From positions 1-47,359 of the forward strand of contig CAYIRJ010000004.1 in NCBI GenBank assembly GCA_964365915.1: a stretch of DNA of 47,359 bases, read 5' to 3'. The DNA comes from Candidatus Woesearchaeota archaeon. GTDB taxonomy: Archaea > Nanobdellota > Nanobdellia > SCGC-AAA011-G17 > DATDVL01. Shown here one piece after another: positions 6,812 to 47,359 of this stretch. Every line of letters starts with the position of its first letter. The first letter of the stretch is position 1. The position numbers and the translations under genes were made by a program. A model generated the notes under the pieces. That model had not been told where the DNA came from. It did not search any database and saw only the letters and a list, made by a program, of their open reading frames with translations.

Positions 6812-9398
6812 CGCAATTGATTTTGCAGCAGCACTGCCGAAAAAAATTTTGGATGAGTTTGAAGAGCTGGCAGCAGCAGAAAAATTAACGCAGAAACAGA
6901 AACAGGAAGCACTGGCACTGCTGCATGAAGAATATCAGAACAGCAAGATCAGCCCTGGGGAGGCGATTGGGATCATCACTGCAGAGAGCTTTGGCGAACC
7001 AGGGACTCAAATGTCACTATTTTTTAGTAACAAAATAATTGTGAAAATAAACAACAATAAAATATTTACGGTAAAAATTGGACCGTTTGTTGATATGTTA
7101 ATGAAGATGAAAGGATCATTTAAACTCAACGATCATTCAGAAATTCTTCCTTTACATGATTTTGAAATTTATGTTCCTAGTTTAAATCAAGAAGAAAAGA
7201 TAGAATGGAAACGCGTGATTGAATGTAGTAGGCATATCACAAACAAAAAACTTATGAGAATTACTACTGCTTCTGGTAGGTCTGTTACCTGTACTGATAA
7301 TCACTCTTTTGTAAATCGTATTCATAATAAGATTACTCCAATAAAAGGGACAGAATTGCAAATTGGAAATAGAATTCCCGTTATTAATTCATTTGTGAAT
7401 CCCTTACCGATGCAAGAATTATCTATCAAAAACCACATCATCGATAATGAAGGAATAGTTGAAGAAAAAGGCGTACTTTCCAAACCAGGAACTAATGCTA
7501 AATCTATGAATGGAAGTTTACCATTAAATGAATCTACTGGATGGTTTATTGGTGCATATCTTGCAGAAGGCAATGGAGGAAAATACCACGCTTCTCTTTC
7601 CAATGTAAATGATAATTACATCAATAACGGTAAACGCTTCGCTGATTCTCTAGGTATTGAACCTGTCGACAGATTTTATATTGGAGAATATGGTCCAGGT
7701 AGATCATTAACATTACATTCTGGATTTTTAGGTAGTTTCATTATAACTCATTGTGGGCAAGGTTCAGATTTCAAAAAAGTCCCTTACTTTGCTTATTCTG
7801 CATCTGATGCGTTCATCTCTGGATTGCTGAGAGGCTACTTTGATGGCGATGGGAATTTCCATGTGGATAGAAAGATGATTCGCTGCTCTTCCAATTCCAA
7901 AGAATTAATAGATGGCATTGCCTTGCTGTTGTCACGATTCAGAATATTTTCCTTTAAAGTACAAGATAAGAAAGGGCAGCACTGGCTCTTGATTCCCTAT
8001 AAGTATGCTCCTTTATTCTTGCAGCACATTGGAAGCGATATTGATTACAAACGTGCTAGCCTCGAAACTTTAGCAGAAAAAGCCAAACGCTTCTGGAATT
8101 CGAGAAGCCAAGATTATACAGACATGATTTCAGGATTTGGAGAACTTTTCAGGAATACTGCAAAGAAGGTTGGCTATCCTACGCGTTACGTCAATAACTT
8201 TACGAACCGCCAAAAAATTGGAAGAACTGCCCTCTTCCGATACATGAAACTCTTTGAACATCTTGCCAAGGAAAAAAACATAGACATTAAGGATGAGCTT
8301 GCTATCATGCAGCGCATGTCTTCCTCTGATGTGGTGTGGGATGAGATTGTAAAGATTGAATATGTCGATAATGACAAGCCTGTTTATGACCTCAGCGTGC
8401 CAGGATTAGAAACATTCACGACAGCAGATGGCATTATCACCCATAACACTTTGAATGTTTTTCACTTTGCAGGCGTCGCGGAAGTGGCAGTGACCCAAGG
8501 ATTGCCCAGGCTTATTGAACTGTTTGATGCCAGAAAAGAAATCAAGACTCCTTTAATGGAAATTTATCTGGACAAGGATATTGCCAAGGATCCTGAAAAA
8601 GTGAGGAAGATGGCTGCACAAATCAGGGAAACCCGTGTCGAGGAAGTGGTCAGTGATTTTTCCATTGATGTTGCACGGCTGCAGATTGCATTGGTGCTGG
8701 ACAAACAGAAGATGAGAAACCTTTCCATTACCAACAATCAGCTAATGAAAGCACTGGAACAGGACATTAAAACTGCCTCGATCAAGGATGAAGGAGATAG
8801 CATTGTACTGAAAACTAAGGTAAAGGAAAATGAGCTGATGGAAACGTACAAGCTGAAGGAAAAAACAAAAACAGTGTTTGTCCGGGGAGTTGCGGGCATC
8901 ACCCAAGTATTGCCAGTGAAGGCAGGCAACGAGTTCATTATCCTTGCAGCAGGGTCGAATCTGAAGGAAGTGTTCGCACTGAAAGGAGTGGATGCTGCAC
9001 GTACGACTACGAACGACATCTTTGAAGTGCAAAAAGTGCTGGGTATTGAGGCAGCACGGCAGACCATCATTAACGAGGCGAAAAAAGTGATTGAGGACCA
9101 AGGACTGGAAGTGGATGTCCGTCATATTTTGTTTATTGCAGATGCCATGACTGCAACAGGAGTAGTAAAAGGGATTACTCGATCAGGCATTACTGGAGAG
9201 AAGGAAAGCGTGCTTGCCCGGGCCAGCTTTGAAACCCCTATTGAACACTTGGTGGATGCCTCGCTGGTGGGAGAAGTAGACTATTTGAATTCCGTCATTG
9301 AAAATGTGATGCTGAACCAGATTGTTCCTTTGGGAACAGGATTGCCTGACCTCAGGGCAGTGACCCAAACTGAGGACAAGGAAAAGAAGGAAGCATGA
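6792..9398 (+). CDS. rpoA2: RNA polymerase subunit A'' interrupted by an intein (390-aa extein plus 478-aa intein)
   Basis: The conserved A'' string GEPGTQM|TLNVFHFAGVAE is split by 478 aa. The ORF-track start at 6792 is GTG. ATG at 6801 is the alternative start. The gene overlaps the rpoA' stop (6809-6811). Confidence 0.93.
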   Translation: MSNMKDNAIDFAAALPKKILDEFEELAAAEKLTQKQKQEALALLHEEYQNSKISPGEAIGIITAESFGEPGTQMSLFFSNKIIVKINNNKIFTVKIGPFVDMLMKMKGSFKLNDHSEILPLHDFEIYVPSLNQEEKIEWKRVIECSRHITNKKLMRITTASGRSVTCTDNHSFVNRIHNKITPIKGTELQIGNRIPVINSFVNPLPMQELSIKNHIIDNEGIVEEKGVLSKPGTNAKSMNGSLPLNESTGWFIGAYLAEGNGGKYHASLSNVNDNYINNGKRFADSLGIEPVDRFYIGEYGPGRSLTLHSGFLGSFIITHCGQGSDFKKVPYFAYSASDAFISGLLRGYFDGDGNFHVDRKMIRCSSNSKELIDGIALLLSRFRIFSFKVQDKKGQHWLLIPYKYAPLFLQHIGSDIDYKRASLETLAEKAKRFWNSRSQDYTDMISGFGELFRNTAKKVGYPTRYVNNFTNRQKIGRTALFRYMKLFEHLAKEKNIDIKDELAIMQRMSSSDVVWDEIVKIEYVDNDKPVYDLSVPGLETFTTADGIITHNTLNVFHFAGVAEVAVTQGLPRLIELFDARKEIKTPLMEIYLDKDIAKDPEKVRKMAAQIRETRVEEVVSDFSIDVARLQIALVLDKQKMRNLSITNNQLMKALEQDIKTASIKDEGDSIVLKTKVKENELMETYKLKEKTKTVFVRGVAGITQVLPVKAGNEFIILAAGSNLKEVFALKGVDAARTTTNDIFEVQKVLGIEAARQTIINEAKKVIEDQGLEVDVRHILFIADAMTATGVVKGITRSGITGEKESVLARASFETPIEHLVDASLVGEVDYLNSVIENVMLNQIVPLGTGLPDLRAVTQTEDKEKKEA
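7014..8447 (+). mobile_element. Intein with LAGLIDADG homing endonuclease, in frame in rpoA''
   Basis: Starts at Ser (TCA 7014) right after GEPGTQM. Ends ..VYDLSVPGLETFTTADGIITHN (AAC 8445-8447), followed by Thr+1. Block B is TCTDNHSF. Two LAGLIDADG motifs: GWFIGAYLAEGNG and LLRGYFDGDGNF. The 5' part is very AT-rich (10/60 G+C at 7021-7080, against 30/60 at 6961-7020). Confidence 0.9.
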
Positions 9399-9652: not shown

Positions 9653-10060
9653 ATGCAGTATGACCTCCAGTTGATTGGCTATCTCAATACTTTTGAATCC
9701 CTAACCCGATCGAAAGTGAAGGATGTGTTCTTTGATGCTACGGAGACCTTGGTGTTTGTGATGCAGCCAGGAGAGATGGGAAAAGCCATTGGCAAGAAAG
9801 GCAGCAATGTGAAACGCTTAGGAAACTTGCTGAAGAAGCGCATTCGCGTTATTGAATTTTCTTCTTCTGCCATTGATTTTGTTAAAAATTGCACGCTGCC
9901 CTTGATTCCGAAAAAGATGGTGCAGGAAGTGGATACTATCACTATCACCATGGAAAATACGCAACAGAAGGCTATGCTGCTGGGAAGGAACAAAAGCAAT
10001 TTCTTGAATATGCAGAAGATAGTGCAGAGATATTATCCGGTGCAGCTGAAAGTGTTATAG
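9653..10060 (+). CDS. nusA: archaeal NusA-like transcription termination/antitermination protein (KH domains)
   Basis: 135 aa. KH signature GKAIGKKGSNVKRL. In the canonical position after rpl30e. Confidence 0.85.
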   Translation: MQYDLQLIGYLNTFESLTRSKVKDVFFDATETLVFVMQPGEMGKAIGKKGSNVKRLGNLLKKRIRVIEFSSSAIDFVKNCTLPLIPKKMVQEVDTITITMENTQQKAMLLGRNKSNFLNMQKIVQRYYPVQLKVL

Positions 10061-11266
10061 AAATATATCATCCTCAGCATCGTAGTCCATTCCTAAGGCC
10101 TTTGTGAATTTTACTTGGTTTTCCTTGATCTGCAGTTTTTGCAGTGCCTTGTTCCTTATTTGTCGAATTCTTTCTCGTGTCACGTTTCCCTCGATTGTAC
10201 CTACTTCTTCCAATGTTCTTTTTTCTCCTGTAAGATACAATAATCTTATTATTCTTTTTTCTCTTTCTTTTAAAGAAGTTTTATCAAGTGCTTGAATAAT
10301 CATTTCTTTATCATAGACTAAAATATTTTCCCTTATCCTTTCTTGGTAATCATGGCAATCTCTTTTTTCCAAATAATCAACTATTTCTTGATCTTGTTGA
10401 TTGTGCTGAATATTTTCTTTTGCTGGAGTTAAGTCCTGCTTAGCTCTGTCATCTAATGTCAACGTTCGATGAAGATTCTGATCTTTGGGTTCTTGGTAAA
10501 GAGTGTTTATTTCTAGATTTACAGGATTCAAAGCCTTGCATATTAATTCAGTTTTTTTATCCGCAATTTCTTCTCCTCTTATTACCTTTTCTGCCCTTAG
10601 GAATAAAAAAGAATCTAGATGCACTGCTGCATAGGAATAGTTATGATAATTTTCACTCATTACACCAAAAAAGGCAGCTCTATACACTGCTGTGTATCCT
10701 GGATGTTTTTCTGCTTTTCTCACGAAATTAATAATAGATATAGAAGCCCGCTGTATGAGATCTTCCAATGGTGGTGATTCTAAATTCCTTGATTTTCTAT
10801 AGCGAATAAATGATTTTCCTGCCTGCGTGGCTGTATGCAGAAAATACGTCTCCATAAATCGTTGCATCTCTTGTTCAGAATATCCTGCTTCTTTCAACGC
10901 TGGAGCAATATGCCCTCGATAATGATGTACAAATGTTGCATGGTATCTTTGATTTACTTCTTCTTGCGTGGCAGATGGGTGCTGCTGTAAAAATTTGAGA
11001 AAGTTCCTTTTTCTTTCATCCCAGACTTTCTCTGACAATTGCCCTTTTCCCCTATTCCAAGCTGATTTTGAAATGCCTACATCTTTTTTTGCATTGTTAA
11101 TTCTCAACCGGTAGAACTTTTTGAGAATGGATTCTAGTCCTGCTTTCCTTACATCCCTTATGCTCGCTCCTTGATGACTTGCTAAATAGTCATAAAATTC
11201 TGTTAATCCTCTTTCCCAATATGCGTAATCCTTCTGTACCTGTTTTTGCTCTGATATAGTAGTCAT
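10055..11266 (-). CDS. sigma-70 family-like protein (region 2-like and region 4 HTH)
   Basis: 403 aa. The C-terminus LKEREKRIIRLLYLTGEKRTLEEVGTIEGNVTRERIRQIRNKALQKLQ is the classic sigma-70 region 4.1/4.2 signature. LEDLIQRASISIINFVRKAEKHPGYTAVYRAAF resembles region 2.1-2.3. The gene is AT-rich (15/60 G+C at 10201-10260). Confidence 0.8.
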   Translation of the reverse strand: MTTISEQKQVQKDYAYWERGLTEFYDYLASHQGASIRDVRKAGLESILKKFYRLRINNAKKDVGISKSAWNRGKGQLSEKVWDERKRNFLKFLQQHPSATQEEVNQRYHATFVHHYRGHIAPALKEAGYSEQEMQRFMETYFLHTATQAGKSFIRYRKSRNLESPPLEDLIQRASISIINFVRKAEKHPGYTAVYRAAFFGVMSENYHNYSYAAVHLDSFLFLRAEKVIRGEEIADKKTELICKALNPVNLEINTLYQEPKDQNLHRTLTLDDRAKQDLTPAKENIQHNQQDQEIVDYLEKRDCHDYQERIRENILVYDKEMIIQALDKTSLKEREKRIIRLLYLTGEKRTLEEVGTIEGNVTRERIRQIRNKALQKLQIKENQVKFTKALGMDYDAEDDIFL

Positions 11267-28974: not shown

Positions 28975-30595
28975 TACTTTCTTCAAATGATTTATTTAAT
29001 TCTGGATATGTTTCAGCAATTGCACGCTTGGTTCCTACATAGATACGCTCTATTCTTTCTTTATCTTCAGGCTTGCGGCGCTCTGACAGTGCAGCAAGCT
29101 GACACAACGAGTTTTGAATGGTAATATTCTTCCACGTATCTATCCAAAGCTGATAATCGCGAGCAGGAAAATATTTTTTCCATTCGTTCCATGCATGCTG
29201 CAAGAGTTCATTACGCTGACCTGGACGGGCAGCCATGAATGCAGCAATGTCGTGCAAAGAATCGGAACGTCCACCGGTCTCCCAGTCAATGACATATCCC
29301 CCTTCCAAAACGTTTGATTCTGCAGCATCACGATGCGCAAGCACTTCAATCCCTAACAGATTACGAAGCTTCGCAAGATTTTCCAATTTTCTTTCGTACT
29401 GGTCCAAAAATTCCTGCTGCCTTGAATGCTGCAACCTTCTCCTGCACCTTCTCTTAAATTCATCTTGATAATCATGCACCGGCTCATCAGGAAAATGCTC
29501 TTGGTACGGGCCTGTTCCTGCTGCCATCAACTTGATGAGATGGGTAATGCCTTGCTTGAAATCATTTAAGTTATTTTCTGCACATTGGTTCAAAGTTTTT
29601 TTGTTTACTCGACGCGTTACAAGAATATACTCCTCCCCATATGGAAAACTGCTCAACGGATCTTCGCATGGCACCTGTTCAATATTCAGTACACCATAGC
29701 GTTGTATATATGCATCTCGCTGCAAACTGGCTATTGCTTCCTCTCGCTTCAATGCTTTTGGATCAATACTACGCTTGAAGAAATAACTATCTTTAGTGAA
29801 AAGATTCTCTTTGCATTCTAACAATACATGTGTCTTGCGGGATTGTGTAACTTTAGCTAATCGTGCAGGATTCTCTAAGATCTTTTCCAATGAAGAACGA
29901 AAATGCTGCTGTGCACGTTTGTATTCTCCCAGAGAACGACAAAAAATTCCTGCCAATAATTCAAGATTTACCGTGTTCTCAGGATATTTCTTAGGAAGCG
30001 ACTCGACTATTCGATGTGCAAGGTAATACCAACCCGATCTTTGATACATATCAAACCGCATAATATCCTTTCTTAATGTCCCACGGAAAGGAAATCCCAA
30101 CCATCCCAACAACGGCAGCATATATTCTGCAAATGTTTTAATATTATCATATTTTTTTTGGTTTTGGATCTTTTGTGCAGTATACAAAAAATATTGATCA
30201 TATCTCTGATTGAGGAACGCTTCCTTTGCACATAGGTCCAAATAAATAGTTGGATTATTTGTTTGTTCTTTTATTGTATCGATTTTTTCAAGGATTTTCT
30301 TTTTTTTCCCAAAAACAGTTTTCGCAAGAGGGAGTATTCCCGTTTTTGGTTCTGCACTTGTTAAGAAGCAAGATGTCATGAACGTCCCACCAAAAAAGCC
30401 CAAAAAAAACAAACGAAGATGATCTTCAATAGGTAGATCTATGTCTGATAACCAATATCGTATTCCTCCATAGATAACTGCGCCCCCTCCTATGGAAAGA
30501 CCATTCATTTCTTTTACCCATTTTTGATGCTTTCGTAATCTCTCCTCAAGCGTTTGTTCCTGATACATCAACTTTTTCTCGTTTTTGAAATTCAA
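28949..30595 (-). CDS. membrane-anchored protein with a C-terminal APH/choline-kinase-like phosphotransferase domain
   Basis: 548 aa. N-terminal hydrophobic helices (GLSIGGGAVIYGGIRYWL, FFLGFFGGTFMTSCFL) and C-terminal LAHRDAAESNVLEGGYVIDWETGG (HxDxxxxN, IDWE). Confidence 0.6.
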   Translation of the reverse strand: MNFKNEKKLMYQEQTLEERLRKHQKWVKEMNGLSIGGGAVIYGGIRYWLSDIDLPIEDHLRLFFLGFFGGTFMTSCFLTSAEPKTGILPLAKTVFGKKKKILEKIDTIKEQTNNPTIYLDLCAKEAFLNQRYDQYFLYTAQKIQNQKKYDNIKTFAEYMLPLLGWLGFPFRGTLRKDIMRFDMYQRSGWYYLAHRIVESLPKKYPENTVNLELLAGIFCRSLGEYKRAQQHFRSSLEKILENPARLAKVTQSRKTHVLLECKENLFTKDSYFFKRSIDPKALKREEAIASLQRDAYIQRYGVLNIEQVPCEDPLSSFPYGEEYILVTRRVNKKTLNQCAENNLNDFKQGITHLIKLMAAGTGPYQEHFPDEPVHDYQDEFKRRCRRRLQHSRQQEFLDQYERKLENLAKLRNLLGIEVLAHRDAAESNVLEGGYVIDWETGGRSDSLHDIAAFMAARPGQRNELLQHAWNEWKKYFPARDYQLWIDTWKNITIQNSLCQLAALSERRKPEDKERIERIYVGTKRAIAETYPELNKSFEESINPSVFLG

Positions 30596-30612
30596 AAATT
30601 TTTCGCCAAAAA

Positions 30613-30625
30613 GCTTATATAAACC
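30613..30625. promoter_or_regulatory. single palindromic TATA element (GCTTATATAAACC) between divergent genes
   Basis: Lies about 24 nt from the minus-strand ATG 30595 and about 26 nt from the plus-strand ATG 30645. Confidence 0.4.
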
Positions 30626-30644
30626 CTTTTTAACTGACTTGATT

Positions 30645-32486
30645 ATGGCGAAGAAAACACCTGACGCACCTTCTTCTCAACCTGATTTGGCTTCCAAGCT
30701 TCCAGAACTGCCTGATGCAGTGAAACAGCGCTTTGAAGAAGTCAAGAAAAAACTAGAAACTTTTAAAGATAAGACCTTAGAAAAATTTGACAAATATATT
30801 CTGGGCATTTCATTATTGCCGCCAGAGAAACAGCCTTTTGAAGGTCCCCCTCCTGCGGCTGCAACACCTCCTCCCGGACCTGAACAGAAAAGTGATGAAC
30901 TGAACATTCTTGTCTTGATAAATGATAGTGACAGTGAGAAAATGAGCAAGTTTGAGCTGCGGGAAAAAATGTTTACTGTTCTTGACAAGATTGCTGCGGA
31001 CATTGACAAAAGCTTCAAGCCTGAAGTGATGCTGCTGACAGAACTGCGCGAAAGTTTGTATGACGCGAAATATGAAATTTTGCGACTTATCGGCATGAGC
31101 GCTCCTATTTACGATCCCAAGGATCTGCTTGCTGCACTCAGGATCAGCGAAGTGCACAAAAGCATGGTCATCAAGAAATTTGAGAAATATGTGGTGAGCT
31201 ATGTTGCTGTGGGAAGCTTGTTTAGAGGAGATGCAAAGAGCAATGACATTGACGTTGCGGTGATCATTGATGATACTGATGTGAAAAAGATGAGCAGGGC
31301 AGAGCTGAGAGACAAGCTTGGAGCAATCATCAGAAGCATGGGATACGAGGCTTCTTCCATTACTGGAGTGAAAAAGAGCTTTCACATTCAAGTATACATC
31401 TTAACTGACTATTGGGAAAGCATCAAGGAAGCGAATCCCGTAATCTTTACGTTCTTGAGAGATGGCGTGCCGCTCTATGACCGAGGGACGTTCATGCCCT
31501 GGAAACTGCTGTTGGAACAGGGAAGAATTCGACCCAGCCCGGAAGCCATTGACTTGTTCATGGACATGGGAAAACGGCTGATTGAGAGGGCAAAAGGAAG
31601 GATGATTGGTATTGTTGCAGAAGATATTTACTATGCAGCCTTGAATCCGAGTCAGGCTGCGTTGATGCTGTATGGCATTCCTCCTCCTACGCCGAAGGAA
31701 ACGGTGAAACTGCTGGAGGATATTTTTGTGAAGAAAGAAAAATTACTGGAAATGAAGTATGTCAACACGCTTGAAAAGATCAGGAAGTGCTACAAGGACA
31801 TTGAGCATGGCACGATCAAGGACATTACGGGAAAAGAAATTGACCAGATGCTGCAGGAGACTGAGGATTATTTGAAGAGGATTGATCATTTGTTCAAGCA
31901 GATTGAGAAGCAGGCTGACAAGAAAGCAGTTGAGGAATTTTACAGCACTTTTGCTAAGGCGGTAAATGATGTTCTTGCTACTGAAAACATTATTGCCAAC
32001 AAAGACTTGGAAAAGGACTTCAAGCTGCTTGTCAAGAAAAACATCATTCCCAAGACCTTTGAAAAAAATCTTGAAGCTGTTGTTGGGCTGAAAAAGAAAA
32101 AATTAACGCGCTTTGAACAGAACAAAGTCATTCGTGAGAATACTTTTTTGATCCGCATCTTGTTTGAACATATCCAACGGAAAAAGGCGCTGGAGCTGGA
32201 ACGGGCAAAGATACGGGTGAAATACGGGGAGAAGTTTGCAGATGTTTACTTATTGGATAAGGTGGCTTATCTGGTGGAGGATGCGGATGGAACGGAAAAA
32301 CGCATCAACAAGGCTCTCTTGACTAAGGAAGGGGGATTAGAAAACATCCAGGAAAGTAACTTAAATGAACTGGAGACGGCATTGACTGCAGTGCCGATTC
32401 CCCAGAAGGTGTTCATCAAGGAAAAGATCTTTGAAGACTTAAGAAAATTGTATGGCGAAGATATTGAGATTGCTGTCGGACGATAA
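30645..32486 (+). CDS. large nucleotidyltransferase (Pol-beta superfamily) protein with a degenerate N-terminal NTase repeat and a helical C-terminal region
   Basis: GSLFRGDAKSNDIDVAVIIDD is the NTase G-S...D-x-D motif. An earlier degenerate copy reads LNILVLINDSDSEKMSKFELREKM. The segment ..LLEQGRIRPSPEAI..YGIPPPTPKE is paralogous to 42354-43166. The likely start is ATG 30645. Confidence 0.65.
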   Translation: MAKKTPDAPSSQPDLASKLPELPDAVKQRFEEVKKKLETFKDKTLEKFDKYILGISLLPPEKQPFEGPPPAAATPPPGPEQKSDELNILVLINDSDSEKMSKFELREKMFTVLDKIAADIDKSFKPEVMLLTELRESLYDAKYEILRLIGMSAPIYDPKDLLAALRISEVHKSMVIKKFEKYVVSYVAVGSLFRGDAKSNDIDVAVIIDDTDVKKMSRAELRDKLGAIIRSMGYEASSITGVKKSFHIQVYILTDYWESIKEANPVIFTFLRDGVPLYDRGTFMPWKLLLEQGRIRPSPEAIDLFMDMGKRLIERAKGRMIGIVAEDIYYAALNPSQAALMLYGIPPPTPKETVKLLEDIFVKKEKLLEMKYVNTLEKIRKCYKDIEHGTIKDITGKEIDQMLQETEDYLKRIDHLFKQIEKQADKKAVEEFYSTFAKAVNDVLATENIIANKDLEKDFKLLVKKNIIPKTFEKNLEAVVGLKKKKLTRFEQNKVIRENTFLIRILFEHIQRKKALELERAKIRVKYGEKFADVYLLDKVAYLVEDADGTEKRINKALLTKEGGLENIQESNLNELETALTAVPIPQKVFIKEKIFEDLRKLYGEDIEIAVGR

Positions 32487-38836: not shown

Positions 38837-39703
38837 TTATGATTGGGTGGCTTTTGCTGTAAGTCCTAAGAAAGGTTCTACGCCAATGAATAGGTTAGGA
38901 TTTGCTCTTTGGGTTTCTACAAGATTGTCTAGAGACTGTAAACGCCGTATATCCATTGCTTTAGGATGTTGTTCGTAGAATTCTGCGGCTTTTGCATACT
39001 CTGCTGCCATTTCTGTTTCTTTTTTGGCCAAATTTAAACGTCCTTCTGCTTCTTCGGCTGCAAGAGTTGCTTCTGCTAATCTTGCCTCTAATTCAGGAGG
39101 GAGATCTATGCGACGGTATAATAGTGCATCTGCCGTTATCCCTAATTGTTCTATTGCGAATTTTTTTGTATCCTCAGAGAGGGTATCAATAGTCTTCTGT
39201 CCACCAACAGTTGCTTGCGCGAGTTCTCTCATTTCTTTTAACTTTTTAGAAAGCACGAATTGCCGCAAGTCTGCTTCTGCGCGATGAATGAGTAAAGTTT
39301 TATAATCAATCTTTTCTGATTCGCTATCATATGCGGCTTGTACAGTTTTTTTTGGATCAGTAATACGGTAATAAAGTGATGCTGACGCCGAAAGGACATC
39401 AATATAATCCCCAGTCTGCACTGTCTTTACCTCGATGTGTTCATTTCTTGGTCTTACGGTATTAATGACCATTCCGCTGCCCCATAATTTAGCTGGGCTA
39501 AAAATAATACGCCATCCTGCACCCTTTACTTCCTCACTTAATTTTCCCCTTCTCCAATAAATCCATTCTTGACCCGACCGTATTTGTAATAATTTAAGAA
39601 ATCTTGTTTCAATAATCATTTCTTCATGAGGACTTTCTAAATAGAACTTGTTTTGCGTATCTTCATCACTTGATTCTGAAAGTTCTGGCTCTTCTGTTGA
39701 CAT
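38837..39703 (-). CDS. SPFH/Band-7 (stomatin-prohibitin-like) domain protein with no N-terminal TM helix
   Basis: 288 aa. ..VKTVQTGDYIDVLSASASLYYRITDPKK, ..HRAEADLRQFV.., ..LGITADALLYRRIDLPPELEARLAEA.. and ..AMDIRRLQSLDNLV follow the SPFH pattern. The N-terminus is acidic, not hydrophobic. Confidence 0.72.
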   Translation of the reverse strand: MSTEEPELSESSDEDTQNKFYLESPHEEMIIETRFLKLLQIRSGQEWIYWRRGKLSEEVKGAGWRIIFSPAKLWGSGMVINTVRPRNEHIEVKTVQTGDYIDVLSASASLYYRITDPKKTVQAAYDSESEKIDYKTLLIHRAEADLRQFVLSKKLKEMRELAQATVGGQKTIDTLSEDTKKFAIEQLGITADALLYRRIDLPPELEARLAEATLAAEEAEGRLNLAKKETEMAAEYAKAAEFYEQHPKAMDIRRLQSLDNLVETQRANPNLFIGVEPFLGLTAKATQS

Positions 39704-41237: not shown

Positions 41238-41534
41238 ATGAAAACATTACCAAAACTCGGATTGCTGGGATTATTGGGTGGTGGTTTAATGGGTTGTGGA
41301 GATGTAGGATATCAACCTGCTAATGAACCTCTCGAAAGAGATACTTCCCAGGATACTGTTCCTTTCTTTAACCAGTTTGGGGTGCTCTATCCTGTAGAGT
41401 CTACTTTTGGAATTGACTATCCAGTTAATTCCCTTGCTACTGGTGATTTTGATGGTGATGGGGATTTAGATCTTGCTGTGGGAAGTGAAGATGCGATAAT
41501 TATTTACGAGAACAAAATTCCTCAGAAGAAATAA
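41238..41534 (+). CDS. small lipoprotein with one FG-GAP repeat (98 aa)
   Basis: MKTLPKLGLLGLLGGGLMGC has a lipobox-like Cys; ATGDFDGDGDLDLAVG follows. GGAG lies upstream of the ATG. Confidence 0.6.
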   Translation: MKTLPKLGLLGLLGGGLMGCGDVGYQPANEPLERDTSQDTVPFFNQFGVLYPVESTFGIDYPVNSLATGDFDGDGDLDLAVGSEDAIIIYENKIPQKK

Positions 41535-41535
41535 C

Positions 41536-41952
41536 ATGAAACTGTTGCAAACGCTGGGACTCATTGGTGCAGGATTAGCATCTTTGCTCCAGGGATGCAG
41601 TAAAACCCCTTCCGTTTCTATCAATAACAATGTCGTGCCGAAAGAAGGGGACAGGGCTATTCTGCAGTTACCCAGTCTGATTAAACCTCCTTACTACTAT
41701 GCCTATATCTGGGATTTAAATGGTGATGGGAACATTGATGAAGCAGTCCATGTCTATGACGTTGATCATCTCAACATAGGTGTAGATCTCAACAAATTGG
41801 CAGGAATTCTTAACACATTAAATAAAGAACAATGGGCTCATTTCCGAGCTGAGGATATTCAACAACCTTATTTTGTTACTCCTCAAACGCGAATCATGTC
41901 TGAAGACCAAAGAACATTTTTCACGCAATCCTATCAACGTTTGCAAAGATAA
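41536..41952 (+). CDS. small lipoprotein with one DxNxDGxID Ca-binding motif (138 aa)
   Basis: MKLLQTLGLIGAGLASLLQGC is followed later by WDLNGDGNIDEAV. Confidence 0.55.
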   Translation: MKLLQTLGLIGAGLASLLQGCSKTPSVSINNNVVPKEGDRAILQLPSLIKPPYYYAYIWDLNGDGNIDEAVHVYDVDHLNIGVDLNKLAGILNTLNKEQWAHFRAEDIQQPYFVTPQTRIMSEDQRTFFTQSYQRLQR

Positions 41953-42353: not shown

Positions 42354-43166
42354 TCACATTCCCTTTTTCTTCTCAATATATTCCTTCATTGCATGTACAA
42401 AATCCTCTGCCTTTTCCTTTAATTCATCGTAGTGCTTTCCAGAAATTTCCTTGATGTCGCGATGTACAATGTGCTTGAATGTTAGATACAGTTCTTGCAT
42501 GATCTTGGCATGCTTATGCTTAATATGGGTTCCTGCTAGTTTTCTTTCCACCATTTCAGCAACATGGCTCGGAGTGGGGGGAATCTCGCCTGCAGCCATT
42601 AAAGCAGCATGTGCAGCGTCAATAGCAGCCCAATACAAATCAATGGTTGCTCCGAGCAGGTGATCCCGCGACCTGGCAAGAGAAGCAGGAGCCAAGGTAA
42701 AATAGGTCCAGACTGATTCGTCTGTTGGTCTGATCCTTCCTTGTTCCAGCAATGCCTGCAGAGGATCAAAGAAGCCTGTGTCAATGACTGCAATGCCATA
42801 GCGCATGACATTAATGGCAACAGGATCGCCTGCACGCACATATTCCCACCAGGCAGTCAACTTCATGGACTGGACATGCAATCTCCTTGGATCGACATCA
42901 TTCATTGCCCTTGCCACGATAACCCGGTAAGCCTCGACCAATTCTTTATTGAACTGAAAACGGAGATCATCTACGATAATAAGAATGTCCAGATCGCGCT
43001 TCTTTCCTCCCGGATCCTTGACTGCAGAACCAAACAAGACCAAGGCGCGGATAAAATTGCCAAATTCCTTGTAAAGAATCTTAGCGAATTTCTGCGTGGT
43101 TTCAATATCCTCTGCAAGATAACGGGAGAAATTCCTCTGCTCACGCTGCGGAATAGAAAACTTCAC
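42354..43166 (-). CDS. nucleotidyltransferase (Pol-beta superfamily) fused to a helical HEPN-like C-terminal domain
   Basis: 270 aa. LVLFGSAVKDPGGKKRDLDILIIVDD is the NTase motif. ..LLEQGRIRPTDES..AGEIPPTPSH is paralogous to 30645-32486. Confidence 0.7.
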   Translation of the reverse strand: MKFSIPQREQRNFSRYLAEDIETTQKFAKILYKEFGNFIRALVLFGSAVKDPGGKKRDLDILIIVDDLRFQFNKELVEAYRVIVARAMNDVDPRRLHVQSMKLTAWWEYVRAGDPVAINVMRYGIAVIDTGFFDPLQALLEQGRIRPTDESVWTYFTLAPASLARSRDHLLGATIDLYWAAIDAAHAALMAAGEIPPTPSHVAEMVERKLAGTHIKHKHAKIMQELYLTFKHIVHRDIKEISGKHYDELKEKAEDFVHAMKEYIEKKKGM

Positions 43167-43296: not shown

Positions 43297-43458
43297 TTAA
43301 TGATCAGCTTGTTCTTTACTTAACATTCCTGCAAATTTTAGAATACTTCCTTTATTTGTAATCCTCTTAATAACACCACTAAAGCTTTCATTTTCTCTTT
43401 TCTTGCTTGCAAGACGTTTGTATGCTTCTTCTGTGATCTTTATTTTTTTGGTAGCCAT
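43297..43458 (-). CDS. 53-aa COG1753/DUF217-type putative antitoxin (absent from the ORF track)
   Basis: MATKKIKITEEAYKRLASKKRENESFSGVIKRITNKGSILKFAGMLSKEQADH matches the archaeal VapB-like K-I-x-I-x-E-E-x-Y..L...K...ESFS.VI.R pattern. Confidence 0.6.
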   Translation of the reverse strand: MATKKIKITEEAYKRLASKKRENESFSGVIKRITNKGSILKFAGMLSKEQADH

Positions 43459-43486: not shown

Positions 43487-45355
43487 CTATTCTAATGGCA
43501 CTTGGCTCCAGAGCGTCCAGTCCTTGGAGGGGGCGAAATCTCCTACAATATAGCTGGGAGCCTGCGTTCTGCCGAAGTAACTGCCCTGAATATCTGTCCA
43601 TGCGCGTGACGTAGTATCTGTCCTGTAAATAGGAGAGGCATTCATTCCTAGGGCGCTTGTCCAGGGGGTATGGAACTGCCCTTGCTTTTGCCCACCTGGC
43701 TCTGCAATGATTTTTCCTTTATAGCCTGCTTTTTCTAGTTCCTTCAAAAATTCCTTAATCGGAGCATTGCCTTCTCCTGGACGGAGATGCTCGTCATGAA
43801 AACCAAAATTATCTGAAATATGCACATTGCCAAGAATGCCTTCTTCAAAAAGGGTTTTGACATTCTGCACTGCCCACTTTTTGAAATCCTCATCACTGCC
43901 TTCATAGTACTTCTTCCAAAAATTAAGATGGCCAATGTCAAACGTGCCTTTGATATGGTCATTTGCAATGCGCTTGGCATCTTCTGGATCTACTTCTTTC
44001 TTGATGAGCTCTTTCTCCATCTCCTTGCGCGCATCCACAATGAGCTCTTTCATTTCTTTGGGATGCGATCCGTACAATTCCGGAGTCCAGTTTTCAGGAG
44101 CTATCCATAAGGGCTTATCTAAGTCCTGCTTCTTTTCTACTTCATATGCATACAATGCAGCCTGCGCAAGATTATGTGCAGACTGTTCTTTTCCGTATTC
44201 TTCTATAGGCACGGTGTTTTCCAAGCGCTTCTTTGCTTCATCAATGCGGGATTGCGCAGCAAGTGCAGTTTGCTGGCCTGATTCCATCACCTTTTTCAGC
44301 CTGTCTTGCTCCTTTCCCAAATATTGCATAGGATCCAAGACTTGTGCAGGAAGAAATGGCTGGTTCTGGAATTTGAATGACTCCTTTAATATTGCCCATT
44401 TTTTTTCTTTCTCCTCTTCAGAACGATCAGGATTCTCAAAGATCGCGTCCTTTAGTTGCTTAAATTTCACATATTCCTGATGAGTACGTTCATAGAGCTC
44501 TTTTGCTTGGTCATACTGCGCTTCATATTCTCGTGCTTGCCCCTCTGCCTGCCTGATCTGTACCGCATTCTGCTCCTTGTAAAATTCCTTTGCAATTTTT
44601 CCTTCGTCTACGATGCCTTTTTTCTTTTGAATTTCAACATACTCTTTCCAAGGAACTGGCTTCAGCTCGATATCTCCTGTTTCCGTATGCTTGAACTCCT
44701 TCAATCCTATGCCTTCTTCCTTCCAGATGATGTTTCCTTCGTTGTCGAGAGGGCGATAAATGACTTCATCATTGCGCACGGTTTGAATGACTTCTCCGGT
44801 TTTCTTGTCCACCAGATAATGGCGCGCAGTCTCTTCTTCTTTTTCATATTGCCTGAACTTTCCAGGAGCTTTTTCTCCGTACCATTCACCCTCATCCACA
44901 TTATAGATGGGGCGGGGAAACTCATGTGTGTGCACGACTACTGGGCCGCCTTCAGCAACGTCTGCTGCAAACTCAATCGCGCGCTTCACTTCGTGAATGC
45001 TCTGCTCTGCTGCTTCCTTGGAAAATGACCTTCCATCAAAACCTGAAAGCGCTCCTAAATCTGGAGCTGCGTGGGTAGATAATTCAACCTCATTGATCTT
45101 TGCAAGCTGGCGCATCTCCTCGCGCTCGTCCTTGCCGTAACTTTCCGGAGTGTGACCTGTGGGGTTGGAACGTGACCCTTTGCCGCGACCGAAGAATCCC
45201 AATTCCACAGTGGAGGCGCCTAGGAAAATGTCTGCCTTTAATCCTTCTGCGACGTCTCCAATGCCATGGGAAATGCCAATGTTCTTCAAGTCTAAACGTA
45301 AATCTTCGTCAAAGATCCTATCGTTCGCGTTGAAATACTCATCTTCAAATGCCAT
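43487..45355 (-). CDS. xylose-isomerase-like TIM-barrel protein (AP_endonuc_2 type) with a large internal charged insertion of a few hundred residues
   Basis: 622 aa. The N-terminal part is ..ELSTHAAP..AIEFAADVAEGGPVVVHTHEF. The C-terminal part is ..GTFDIGHLNFW..GNVHISDNFGFHDEHLRPGEGNAPIKEFLKELEKAGYKGKIIAEPG. The middle is Glu/Lys-rich and helical. Confidence 0.65.
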   Translation of the reverse strand: MAFEDEYFNANDRIFDEDLRLDLKNIGISHGIGDVAEGLKADIFLGASTVELGFFGRGKGSRSNPTGHTPESYGKDEREEMRQLAKINEVELSTHAAPDLGALSGFDGRSFSKEAAEQSIHEVKRAIEFAADVAEGGPVVVHTHEFPRPIYNVDEGEWYGEKAPGKFRQYEKEEETARHYLVDKKTGEVIQTVRNDEVIYRPLDNEGNIIWKEEGIGLKEFKHTETGDIELKPVPWKEYVEIQKKKGIVDEGKIAKEFYKEQNAVQIRQAEGQAREYEAQYDQAKELYERTHQEYVKFKQLKDAIFENPDRSEEEKEKKWAILKESFKFQNQPFLPAQVLDPMQYLGKEQDRLKKVMESGQQTALAAQSRIDEAKKRLENTVPIEEYGKEQSAHNLAQAALYAYEVEKKQDLDKPLWIAPENWTPELYGSHPKEMKELIVDARKEMEKELIKKEVDPEDAKRIANDHIKGTFDIGHLNFWKKYYEGSDEDFKKWAVQNVKTLFEEGILGNVHISDNFGFHDEHLRPGEGNAPIKEFLKELEKAGYKGKIIAEPGGQKQGQFHTPWTSALGMNASPIYRTDTTSRAWTDIQGSYFGRTQAPSYIVGDFAPSKDWTLWSQVPLE

Positions 45356-45363
45356 GCTTTACT

Positions 45364-45930
45364 TCAGATCCCCAATCTTTTATATTTTTCCGTTTTCTTC
45401 AGCTCGCGCTCTGCAGGACTTTTCGTAGCTTCTTCAAGCTGCTCTTGTGCAGTCTTTTCTGGCTTAAATGTTTCTGTAGGAGTGCCGCCAGGCTTCCATT
45501 CTGCTGGTTTATAACTTTCTTCTTTTCCATAGGCGGGACGTTCAGCTCCATACGTAATCACAGGAACAGGTTCCTCTTTCTTCACTGGAGTTTCTTCCAC
45601 TACAGTATCTAAGGTGGGAGTTTGCGCCTTGACTTCAGAAAAACGCCTTCTTTCCTCTCGCCCCCTTTCTTCTCGTGCTTCTGTTGATTCTGGCTGCAGG
45701 GCAAGTTCATCCACAGATTTTCCTAAAGATTTCCAGGGCTCTTGCTTTTTCTGCTTGATAGGATGCTCAAGATGGGGTGTAGGAGAAAAAGTTGCCAGCA
45801 GCTGCAGCATTTCCTGCTTGATTTTGGGATCCCCTACTGTGGATAATTCCTTCTCTATGGTAAGCCGCTGGTCTATAAGGGGGAGCTTCTTCAATGATTC
45901 CTTGAGCTTCATCCAGGAACGCTGATCCAT
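45364..45930 (-). CDS. hypothetical Lys/Glu/Pro-rich, probably disordered protein (188 aa)
   Basis: Long ORF between two co-oriented genes. No family recognised. Confidence 0.45.
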   Translation of the reverse strand: MDQRSWMKLKESLKKLPLIDQRLTIEKELSTVGDPKIKQEMLQLLATFSPTPHLEHPIKQKKQEPWKSLGKSVDELALQPESTEAREERGREERRRFSEVKAQTPTLDTVVEETPVKKEEPVPVITYGAERPAYGKEESYKPAEWKPGGTPTETFKPEKTAQEQLEEATKSPAERELKKTEKYKRLGI

Positions 45931-47359
45931 TAGGGAGTGTACATTTTATGCGCCTTCTTAAAGATATCATACAACAACAATGCTTCAGTTTTAGCGCTAT
46001 CGTTTGCTGCCTTTTTCTCAACAGCTAGTTCCTTCTTTGATACTACTCTTTCTTTTTCTTCCTTGTCTTCAGTTTTCCACTGGAAGGGAATTTTTCCTAT
46101 TTCTGCAAAGCCAGAAAGCAAGGCTTTGAATGGCTCGAAAAGAGAATTGGATTCCTTTTGCTTTTTTTCTTCAGCAATGGGATACAAGCCTTGCACATTC
46201 TCCAGCTTGTACAGCTCTACTGCTTCCTTCAGATATTTATCCAGGTCATCCTTCAATGCCTCGACTGTCTGGTCCACTGCAGCAAGCACTTCAAAAGTGT
46301 CATAGTCCTGTTGTTTTTTGTACATTTCCAAGTCTTCTTTCTTGGCAACAAATCCTTCGATAGTGATTTCTGTATGACCTGTATGAATAGCGCCGCGCTG
46401 GTATTCTTGCTGGTATGCCATCTGCGGAATCGTCACATGCTTGATGCGCGCCCTGATGACAGGAAAATACTTTGCAAAAAACCGTTCTTCCTTGTTGCCA
46501 TAGTACGTTTCTATTTCGTATCTCTTTCGGATGGCAATGACCTCCAGCTCAATCTTTGCAGTATCAAATGCAGTAGCAATATCATAGCTTGCGAGGTCTG
46601 CGCGCTGCTGCAGTTTTTTGATATTTTCCAAGTACGGCTTGAGCCACTGCGCATACATCTTGATGATATTGAATTCCTGGATCAGATACACCAGCACAAA
46701 CTTTCTGCGTTGACGTAATTCCCGCTCGGTATTGTCACGCCATAAGATGTACTGCTCCAGCTTTCTTTTCAGCACTTCCCTCACTTTCCTGTTGATGCCT
46801 TTGCTTTCATAGCCCTCTACAATTTTATCTACGCTTTCTCCTGACTTGACAAACGTATCGAAGAACAGATCAGGCAACGTAACAAATCCTACTTGGCTTG
46901 CCAATCCATAGACAGAAGAAGGATTCTTTCCTGCGCCTTCCACAATATCTACCCAGATGCCTTTTAACGCAATGTCTGCTGCTTTTTCTCCTTTCAGAAT
47001 GCCATCGTAAAATCCTAAACGCTCATCAAGAATGCGGAGCTCGCGAATGATCTGGAACAAGTCCTTGATGAATTTTCCGATGTTGGCAAGATATTGTCCT
47101 ACCCGATCCTGCTGGACTCCCTTGCGCTGCTCTACATTTCCCCAGTAAGAAGAAGTTTCTGCAGAGGTATAGACATCCTTGATCTTGATGATCTCTCCAT
47201 TTTCTCCGGAGAACTCCCTGCCAAACGCCCCTGCCTTTTCCAGATAGCGGATGATCCAGAAATAATAGCGCTCCACATTTGCAGTAGGAGCATTGATAGT
47301 AATGCGAAAAGGGCCTCCATCATCCACAGGCCTTTTGAAGCTTTCGGGAAGTTCCCAGC
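45930..47359 (-). CDS. large hypothetical protein, probably 5'-truncated by the window edge
   Basis: The ORF-track start at 47327 is a GTG. The frame stays open to nt 47359 (..WELPESFKRPVDDGGPF..). At least 465 aa. Overlaps the downstream gene by 1 nt. No family recognised. Confidence 0.6.
   Translation of the reverse strand, partial: WELPESFKRPVDDGGPFRITINAPTANVERYYFWIIRYLEKAGAFGREFSGENGEIIKIKDVYTSAETSSYWGNVEQRKGVQQDRVGQYLANIGKFIKDLFQIIRELRILDERLGFYDGILKGEKAADIALKGIWVDIVEGAGKNPSSVYGLASQVGFVTLPDLFFDTFVKSGESVDKIVEGYESKGINRKVREVLKRKLEQYILWRDNTERELRQRRKFVLVYLIQEFNIIKMYAQWLKPYLENIKKLQQRADLASYDIATAFDTAKIELEVIAIRKRYEIETYYGNKEERFFAKYFPVIRARIKHVTIPQMAYQQEYQRGAIHTGHTEITIEGFVAKKEDLEMYKKQQDYDTFEVLAAVDQTVEALKDDLDKYLKEAVELYKLENVQGLYPIAEEKKQKESNSLFEPFKALLSGFAEIGKIPFQWKTEDKEEKERVVSKKELAVEKKAANDSAKTEALLLYDIFKKAHKMYTP

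Follow-up and report, generated by a model that had tools for sequence, protein, structure and literature searches.

Genes at the locus

The window, that is the whole stretch of DNA analysed here, is an entire contig of 47,359 bp from a groundwater archaeon of the Nanoarchaeota/Woesearchaeota type. It carries three co-oriented genes, referred to below as A, B and C, and a further gene, D, which is the usual fourth member of this neighbourhood and follows C (Table 1). The last base of the TAA stop codon of A is also the first base of B's ATG (..cccTAATGgat..), and the TGA of B is followed by 8 nt (agtaaagc) and then by the ATG of C. A previous reading made from the letters alone (the sequence-only reading) had described three co-oriented genes with a 1-nt overlap and an 8-nt gap, and both the open reading frame coordinates and the junction sequences agree with it.

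Table 1. Position of the genes and of the parts of protein C in the 47,359-bp window
Feature	Position	Strand	Description
Gene A	45930..>47359	minus	475 codons + stop inside the window; 5' end past the contig edge
Gene B	45364..45930	minus	188 aa
Gene C	43487..45355	minus	622 residues
C residues 1-150	44906..45355	minus	N-terminal half of the TIM barrel, strands 1-4
C residues 151-415	44111..44905	minus	folded insertion specific to this family, placed between strands 4 and 5 of the barrel
C residues 416-573	43637..44110	minus	C-terminal half of the TIM barrel, strands 5-8
C residues 574-622 + stop	43487..43636	minus	conserved C-terminal tail, low-confidence prediction
Gene D	42354..43166	minus	270-aa minimal nucleotidyltransferase + helical domain; Pfam Polbeta, NTP_transf_2

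Protein C, a TIM barrel with a large insertion

Protein C is a (beta/alpha)8 barrel of the xylose-isomerase-like/endonuclease-IV superfamily, closest to MJ1311 of Methanocaldococcus jannaschii. It matches the Pfam family PF01261 (AP_endonuc_2) in two stretches that flank an insertion (E=3e-17, 63.5 bits against a cut-off of 31.1), and this family was found in all the C relatives listed. The fold is superposable on solved members of the xylose isomerase-like TIM barrels, in agreement with the class assigned from the letters, and the motifs then quoted lie at residues 139-146 (VVVHTHEF), 474-480 (IGHLNFW), 511-516 (VHISDN) and 520-529 (HDEHLRPGEG). AlphaFold2 places the strands of the N-terminal half at residues 26-29, 49-53, 91-95 and 137-142.

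Alignment of the C relatives revealed invariant residues in both halves of the barrel, namely E51, H95, H142 and a Gly-rich loop G-x-G-K-G-S in the N-terminal half, and E421, D473, H476, H512, D515, N516, D521, H523 and E552 in the C-terminal half. H95, H142, E421, D473, H476, H512, D521, H523 and E552 do not vary in 56 C sequences; among them, the Glu/Asp/His/Glu set at the C-terminal ends of strands 5-8 (E421, D473, H512, E552) aligns with the corresponding residues of MJ1311, of the epimerases and of endonuclease IV (Nfo).

The two halves had been described as separated by a Glu/Lys-rich helical insertion. An insertion is indeed present, covering approximately residues 150-415 (265 aa, K+E 28%), but it is a folded domain rather than a simple helix. 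In the AlphaFold2 model it comprises a beta subdomain (residues 178-235) and four long helices (251-306, 313-331, 342-379 and 384-410), mostly with pLDDT above 90. The possibility of a frameshift fusion or an assembly artefact is excluded, since every full-length C relative listed measures approximately 550-700 aa and shares the architecture; the open reading frame is moreover continuous and the predicted fold confident. The insertion-bearing architecture is therefore genuine and family-wide. The insertion also gave a weak profile match to 8tsh, a capsular-biosynthesis protein of the Wzc type (E=0.007), which was treated as the product of helical and compositional bias.

The barrel is followed by a tail conserved as SPIYR..W.D..SYFG....PSKDWTLWSE.PLE, in which Y577, W586 and G595 never vary and conservation reaches at least 90% at S574, P575, Y593, F594, W616 and E622. 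Its pLDDT in the AlphaFold2 model is below 50, and it is probably a docking peptide.

Proteins A and B

Protein A runs off the contig, as the sequence-only reading had noted, and since no in-frame stop is met as far as the window edge it spans at least 475 codons here, not the 465 aa given in that reading. Recovery of the 5' end, which had been proposed as a check, was partly achieved: a sister contig provides 15 further residues and, as a homologue that is 79% identical (P0001) has 498 aa, just about 8 residues are still missing from a full length of about 498 aa. Relatives of A are present in at least 564 species genomes.

Nothing significant was retrieved for A or for B in Pfam, PHROGs, NCBIfam, PADLOC or PDB sequences, the best returns having E of 0.2 or worse, and A gave no whole-fold match to known structures. 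The previous statement that the large protein has no nameable match thus holds for characterised families by sequence as well as by fold. According to the structure prediction, A begins with a small alpha/beta element and continues with two helices of 50-60 residues and a sheet of 5-6 strands, after which come a disordered linker and a conserved amphipathic C-terminal helix. The protein also contains an invariant segment, VEGG.KNP.SV.GLASQVGF.TLPDLFF. Structure comparison comes closest to generic helical hairpins (the N-terminal domain of CNOT3/Not5, the seryl-tRNA synthetase arm, prefoldin and CdvB2), to none of which A has a sequence relationship; they leave three quarters of the protein unmatched, including the beta-sheet, the invariant VEGG segment and the terminal helix. 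Longer homologues were checked for extra domains and none was found, save a UBA_HYPK-type domain in one subclade. Comparison of the beta domain of A with a 166-aa family encoded upstream was not significant (hhalign E=0.04-0.08). Protein A is a candidate new fold.

Protein B is rich in Glu, Lys and Pro (16, 13 and 9%, respectively) and is probably disordered. It had been presented as a Lys/Glu/Pro-rich protein matching nothing; the composition and the lack of a database match were confirmed, but B is not an orphan and belongs to a fast-evolving family defined by short conserved motifs, which are an N-terminal helix (L..L.KLP...L..L), W-K, (S/P)LE..V, YG and a C-terminal E.YK+. In related loci, B-like open reading frames occupy the A-C gaps of 430-950 nt and mostly overlap or abut A. 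An HMM built from them matches 42 loci, always downstream of A and on the same strand as A, and upstream of C in every locus where C was found. As judged by this HMM, B remains with A where C is missing and with C where A is displaced. No similarity was detected between B and the small upstream MGIFGKLFG protein.

Conservation of gene order

For linkage, the informative species loci are the 67 that extend at least 2.5 kb past A on its downstream side. In 54 of these, C follows A on the same strand, and in 49 it does so within 1.4 kb, the distance being within 100 nt in 13 loci and 100-1400 nt in 36. The order A-B-C, start/stop overlaps included, is retained in relatives as distant as 36-40% identity, and A-B-C-x-D is kept in a locus in which C is only 36% identical (L086). 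Conversely, C is absent within 10 kb of A in 13 of the 67 loci, and A and C are adjacent without B in 13, so that the partnership is not obligatory in gene order. The conserved order could also reflect in part slow rearrangement within one order. Nevertheless, the earlier suggestion that tight linkage denotes one functional unit is supported, as the linkage extends beyond this contig to 54 of 67 loci, with B-like genes between A and C.

The A-B-C cluster is neither a mobile element nor a defence system. PADLOC returned no match for A, B or C; tblastn of A and C against 50,697 phage records gave none, and no PHROG match was better than E=0.2. The three genes are syntenic with housekeeping genes. 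No description of the cluster was found in the literature searched. The three genes form a real module, passed on vertically in DPANN archaea of the Woesearchaeota/Pacearchaeota type, and most likely specify one protein assembly centred on C; we give this explanation, with the functions proposed below, about even odds.

Relationship of protein C to known enzymes

The closest relative of C in both sequence and structure is MJ1311 (PDB 3WQO, 'D-tagatose 3-epimerase-like protein'), with which it shares the VVVH, FDIGH and DN.GY.DEH motifs. MJ1311 is a single domain (a 293-residue PDB chain), whereas C reaches 622 residues with its 265-residue insertion and conserved 49-residue tail, and differs further in its long conserved Gly-rich beta2-alpha2 loop and in the orphan partners A and B encoded alongside. 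We know of no activity for MJ1311, the structure of which has been available since a 2014 PDB entry. Uechi et al. in 2014 reportedly found it to be devoid of a DNA-binding groove, and the structure paper is said to list nine conserved Zn ligands.

The trinuclear zinc site of Escherichia coli Nfo is formed by H69, H109, E145, D179, H182, H216, D229, H231 and E261. Invariant candidates for all nine ligands are present in C, in alignments to Nfo that are not significant (E about 0.06). At that level of profile comparison, hhalign pairs H512/D521/H523/E552 of C with H216/D229/H231/E261 of Nfo; a forced hhalign alignment of low confidence adds H95 with H69 and D473/H476 with D179/H182, and H142 and E421 were matched by strand order in the predicted model only. 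No NCBIfam nfo match was obtained for C, and endonuclease IV was not among the structures returned by PDB profile searches. In addition, endonuclease IV (PDB 1QTW, 3AAM, 2X7W) has neither the insertion nor the tail, and its DNA-intercalating residues are not recognisable in C.

Sugar epimerases also differ from C. The only NCBIfam return for C is fructoselysine 3-epimerase, at a sub-threshold 23 bits against a cut-off of 305. In HMM alignments, the G-F-H-D-E-H of C and the G-Y-x-D-E-H of MJ1311 fall opposite a 5-residue gap in YcjR and the D-tagatose 3-epimerases, and the ketose 3-epimerases and sugar isomerases (D-tagatose/D-allulose 3-epimerase, YcjR, IolI) do not contain the insertion.

Proposed assembly and alternative explanations

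C would stand at the centre of a single assembly, with A and B as non-catalytic partners. The insertion departs from the barrel where strand 4 ends on its C-terminal side, which in TIM barrels is the catalytic face, and it is therefore probably a platform for binding a substrate or a partner. The chemistry is most likely metal-activated phosphoester hydrolysis in a phosphate-bearing, probably polymeric substrate, because C keeps invariant candidate counterparts of the nine endonuclease IV ligands, including the D-x-H loop that is absent in ketose epimerases; a free sugar undergoing isomerisation is the less likely option. The non-significance of the profile comparison with Nfo, the placing of H142 and E421 by strand order only and the reported missing DNA-binding groove of MJ1311 speak against it. 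Protein A, with its structured core, flexible linker and terminal helix, and the disordered B may scaffold, localise or regulate C through peptide docking, and D, the nucleotidyltransferase, may work in one pathway with them. Carried further, A-B-C together with D, and perhaps also with the small proteins conserved upstream, would be an undescribed lineage-specific macromolecular machine, in which an endonuclease-IV-like trinuclear-metal enzyme was rebuilt by the insertion and docking tail for a polymeric or membrane substrate and is held and regulated by the new-fold A and the adaptor B. In this extended form, in which A would found a new family and fold and have an essential role in organisms with genomes of about 1 Mb, the proposal is tentative.

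Alternatively, C could be the AP endonuclease of these reduced genomes, functionally equivalent to endonuclease IV, in a lineage-specific base-excision-repair unit with A and B as DNA-repair or chromatin accessory factors and D as a repair nucleotidyltransferase. We consider this unlikely, given the missing NCBIfam endonuclease IV match, the D-S-Y-L that enters DNA after H69 in Nfo and faces A-A-P-D after H95 in C (in a low-confidence alignment), with no counterpart there, and the linkage to a glycosylase in only 13 of 82 loci. Somewhat less probable still is what the public annotation proposes, an ordinary sugar or sugar-phosphate isomerase/epimerase with A and B unrelated to it and adjacent by chance or through a shared promoter. 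The score, far below the NCBIfam cut-off, speaks against it, as do the extra invariant His/Asp residues and the D-x-H loop that those epimerases do not have, an insertion and a conserved tail unknown in epimerases, the maintenance of A-B-C with its overlaps in distant relatives and the absence of sugar transport or catabolic genes from the annotated neighbourhoods.

A cytoskeletal or membrane assembly was also considered, for example ESCRT-III/PspA-like remodelling or lipoprotein/lipid handling, in which A would be a membrane-binding filament or scaffold and C would modify a lipid head group. No Snf7 or PspA_IM30 signature was found in A, nor a whole-fold match that would place it in the ESCRT-III/PspA group, and we hold this explanation to be improbable. 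Finally, C could act as a multinuclear non-haem iron oxidase (MNIO/DUF692-like) with the disordered B as its substrate; C displays no DUF692 signature and its closest fold match is not among these oxidases. Of the explanations considered, this is the least probable.

DPANN archaea have very small genomes, and yet no function has been assigned to a large part of the genes conserved in them. At this locus, in a tightly organised module retained by at least 564 species-level genomes, a recognisable catalytic scaffold of the MJ1311/endonuclease-IV-like type is coupled to two partners: C is a known enzyme superfamily in a new insertion-bearing form, and A and B are partners without characterised relatives. 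If the C-centred assembly is real, it would open a concrete way to test what the MJ1311 subgroup of TIM barrels does, and would provide a candidate new fold in A and a TIM barrel with an acquired 265-residue domain, probably on its catalytic face. Should C be an AP endonuclease or another essential phosphoesterase, it would fill a gap in the reconstructed core biology of these archaea.

Gene D and other neighbours

The linkage of D is looser than that of A, B and C. Here, D has its own TATA-like box, TTTATATA, and a VapB-like open reading frame lies between C and D; the sister contig (L087) has the same open reading frame and an identical C-D spacing of 320 nt. Among the open reading frames that follow C in 34 related loci, the best matches to D are 59-74% identical, and D stays linked to C in a locus in which A is 100 kb away (L085). 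As for other neighbours, a glycosylase gene is linked in the 13 of 82 loci mentioned above, and a divergently transcribed signal peptidase II is part of the conserved neighbourhood upstream.

A conserved three-gene cluster

Three adjoining minus-strand genes at the contig end encode an orphan protein (A), a probably disordered protein (B) and an insertion-bearing TIM barrel (C). For A, 475 codons lie in the window and a sister contig provides 15 more residues, the 5' extension that a sequence-only reading had proposed as a check; since the homologue P0001, 79% identical to A, has 498 aa, about 8 residues are still missing. The 1-nt overlap and 8-nt gap noticed in that reading are seen at the stop/start junctions, A's TAA sharing one base with B's ATG and 8 nt separating B's stop from C's start. 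The three genes are probably co-translated.

Coordinates of the features discussed (in the window unless a related locus is named)
Feature	Location	Strand	Remark
Gene A	45930..47327+	-	large ORF, frame open to contig edge
Gene B	45364..45930	-	large ORF
Gene C	43487..45355	-	large ORF
VapB-type antitoxin ORF	43297..43458	-	53 aa; PF02697, E=8e-14
Gene D	42354..43166		270-aa nucleotidyltransferase
Small ORF	41536..41952	+	lipobox-like signal peptide at start
Small ORF	41238..41534	+	lipobox-like signal peptide at start
Band_7/SPFH gene	38837..39703	-	small flanking ORFs
633-aa ORF	30585..32486	+	Pfam-free
Sigma-70 region 4 protein	10055..11266	-	403 aa; PF04545, E=1e-10
rpoA''	6792..9398	+	RNA polymerase Rpb1 domain 5
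MGIFGKLFG protein, L042	9497..9835	-
MGIFGKLFG protein, L055	9463..9822	-
166-aa family, L066	8237..9796	-
166-aa family, L037	7822..8872	-
Band_7/SPFH gene, L001	15919..16779
638-aa protein, L086	10081..11997

To assess linkage, 67 species loci were used in which the sequence extends at least 2.5 kb past the downstream end of A. C lies within 100 nt of A in 13 of them, 100-1400 nt away in 36 and farther but still inside the flank in 5, and is missing from the flank in the other 13; wherever it is present (54/54 loci), it shares A's strand and lies downstream. In related loci, an A-C gap of 430-950 nt contains a K/E-rich ORF of 138-229 aa, the start of which typically overlaps the stop of A or lies right next to it. 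An HMM built from these B-like ORFs picked up a B-like gene in 42 loci, including 11 that had not contributed to it, and in every case (42/42) the gene shares A's strand and lies downstream of it. B still adjoins A where C is absent (L011, L073, L082 and L083), and still adjoins C where other genes lie between A and C (L008, L009 and L022).

The TIM-barrel protein

Two separate stretches of C match the xylose isomerase-like TIM barrel family PF01261, scoring 63.5 bits where the Pfam cut-off is 31.1, and every motif quoted in the sequence-only reading was found. Among PDB sequences, MJ1311/3WQO matches best, at E=5e-6 when C alone is the query and at 8e-11 when the family profile is used; MJ1311 is listed as the predicted endonuclease IV homologue of M. 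jannaschii (PMC2770678). Among the best 120 of 157 relatives at E<=1e-3, which originate from Woesearchaeota/Nanoarchaeota MAGs, all carry PF01261 and, save for one partial entry and one protein of 515 aa, measure 550-696 aa. The interrupted barrel described earlier is therefore a family trait. Within a known enzyme superfamily, C represents a new architectural variant.

An AlphaFold2 model of C (56 sequences; pLDDT 83.8, pTM 0.80) predicts eight barrel strands, with a well-predicted insertion between strand 4 (137-142) and strand 5 (416-421) that comprises beta strands (178-235) and helices 251-306, 313-331, 342-379 and 384-410. Confidence is low for the last 49 residues, yet this tail is one of the best-conserved regions of the family in the 56-sequence alignment; it would be a peptide folding on a partner.

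Invariant residues in the same alignment include E51, H95, H142, E421, D473, H476, H512, D515, N516, D521, H523 and E552. In a weak hhalign comparison with E. coli endonuclease IV (Nfo; E about 0.06), H512, D521, H523 and E552 are paired with H216, D229, H231 and E261. An equally weak forced alignment of the insertion-deleted C family (E about 0.06) adds H95 = H69 and D473/H476 = D179/H182, while H142 in strand 4 and E421 in strand 5 correspond to Nfo H109 and E145 by strand order only. Because these comparisons are weak, the equivalence of nine ligands is likely rather than proven. It receives independent support from profile alignments, in which YcjR and D-tagatose 3-epimerases show a 5-residue gap exactly opposite the G-Y-x-D-E-H of C and MJ1311. 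Together, the ligand comparisons and this gap place C with MJ1311 in a subgroup that probably keeps the endonuclease-IV-type third metal site. In the MJ1311 structure of Uechi et al. 2014, the nine Zn ligands are reportedly conserved and a DNA groove is lacking.

Proteins A and B

A search at E<=1e-3 returned 1386 homologues of A, all hypothetical and Pfam-free apart from one UBA_HYPK match. At 50% identity they fall into 657 clusters; those listed are mostly 450-560 aa long, with some shorter fragments among them. Relatives are present in 564 or more species-representative genomes. The earlier reading could name no match for A, and searches of Pfam, PHROGs, NCBIfam, PADLOC, PDB sequences and phage genomes gave no significant one either. 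The AlphaFold2 model made on P0001 (pLDDT 79, pTM 0.63) starts with strands 35-44 and 75-86 and helix 50-61, followed by a 52-residue helix (91-142) and a 60-residue helix (211-270) that flank the invariant segment ..W.D.VEGG.KNP.SV.GLASQVGF.TLPDLFF... Next come a sheet (288-360) and helices spanning 361-404; a disordered linker then leads to a conserved amphipathic C-terminal helix (464-492). In one subclade (P0073, P0042, P0060, P0063, P0094 and P0120), a NAC/HYPK-type UBA domain of about 40 residues (PF19026, E=4e-8 in P0073) resides in the linker before this helix, which fits an exposed, interaction-prone linker.

B has 188 aa (16% E, 13% K and 9% P), in agreement with its earlier description as Lys/Glu/Pro-rich; it is cysteine-free and has no significant match in the databases searched, Pfam and PHROGs among them. 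When the B-like ORFs are aligned, the conserved elements are an N-terminal helix motif, W-K, (S/P)LE..V, YG and an E.YK+ motif at the C-terminus, with non-conserved spacers around them. Both A and B belong to conserved families for which sequence searches gave no known relative.

Neighbouring genes

Further conserved neighbours were found by clustering ORFs around A-C loci. D follows C in 34 loci (59-74% identity in best matches), and the C-D pair is intact even with A 100 kb off on the same contig. D has a TATA-like box of its own in the window. The VapB-type ORF between C and D is solitary, with no toxin gene adjoining, and in other species this interval has either no gene or small unrelated ones. 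The distant member L086 has the order A-B-C-flavodoxin-D. A region of the 633-aa ORF is 31% identical to D residues 94-257, and the 638-aa protein, two genes after D in L086, has a weak NTP_transf_2 match; the two may form a larger paralogue family.

Of 82 related loci, 52 have a bacterial-type signal peptidase II (Peptidase_A8) gene close upstream of A, and in 44 it lies on the opposite strand; in L086 an AliA_AliB lipoprotein-biogenesis gene takes its place. The lipobox-like signal peptides of the two small ORFs in the window include ..LMGC.. and ..LLQGC... A conserved 112-aa or so protein starting MGIFGKLFG recurs in 25 loci. Its gene sits immediately upstream of A, on the other strand; the protein has a disordered middle, ends in a helix (..LSKLDLINARLENLNRRLE..) with a terminal Trp, and has no Pfam match. 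A 166-aa family occurs upstream of A in one to three tandem copies in 30 loci, with no match in Pfam or PDB and no significant likeness to the beta-sheet part of A (hhalign E=0.04). Both the window and the 57%-identical locus L001 have a Band_7/SPFH gene a few kb downstream of the module, indicating extended synteny.

Proposed function

A-B-C is established by these data as a conserved unit with a metal enzyme of the MJ1311/endonuclease-IV subgroup at its centre. The earlier observation is confirmed, and its interpretation as one functional unit supported. No description of the cluster was found in the literature searched. From its ligand pattern, C would catalyse phosphoester hydrolysis, and the model topology suggests that its insertion forms a platform on the catalytic face. 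Judging by their architecture, with folded cores present or absent, linkers disordered and terminal peptides conserved, A and B may act as docking partners.

Other readings scored below this one. A base-excision-repair endonuclease is unlikely. A plain sugar epimerase, against which the gap opposite G-Y-x-D-E-H speaks, is a little less probable still. C matched none of the curated nfo or epimerase models of NCBIfam. A role in membrane or cytoskeletal assembly is improbable, and an MNIO-type oxidase with B as substrate is very improbable. Nothing favours a mobile element or defence system, with no PADLOC match for A, B or C and no phage-genome match for A or C.

Other genes of the contig

The source is a groundwater archaeon of Nanoarchaeota/Woesearchaeota type, with sister contigs named Hain_H51. 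The window is a whole contig of 47,359 bp, with a GC content of about 0.42, and no tRNA gene was found in it. Among its genes are split rpoB, rpoA' and an intein-bearing rpoA'', as well as EF-2 and EF-1alpha. The intein splitting rpoA'' includes a LAGLIDADG homing-endonuclease domain. In addition, this archaeal contig encodes a protein with a bacterial-type Sigma-70 region 4 helix-turn-helix.
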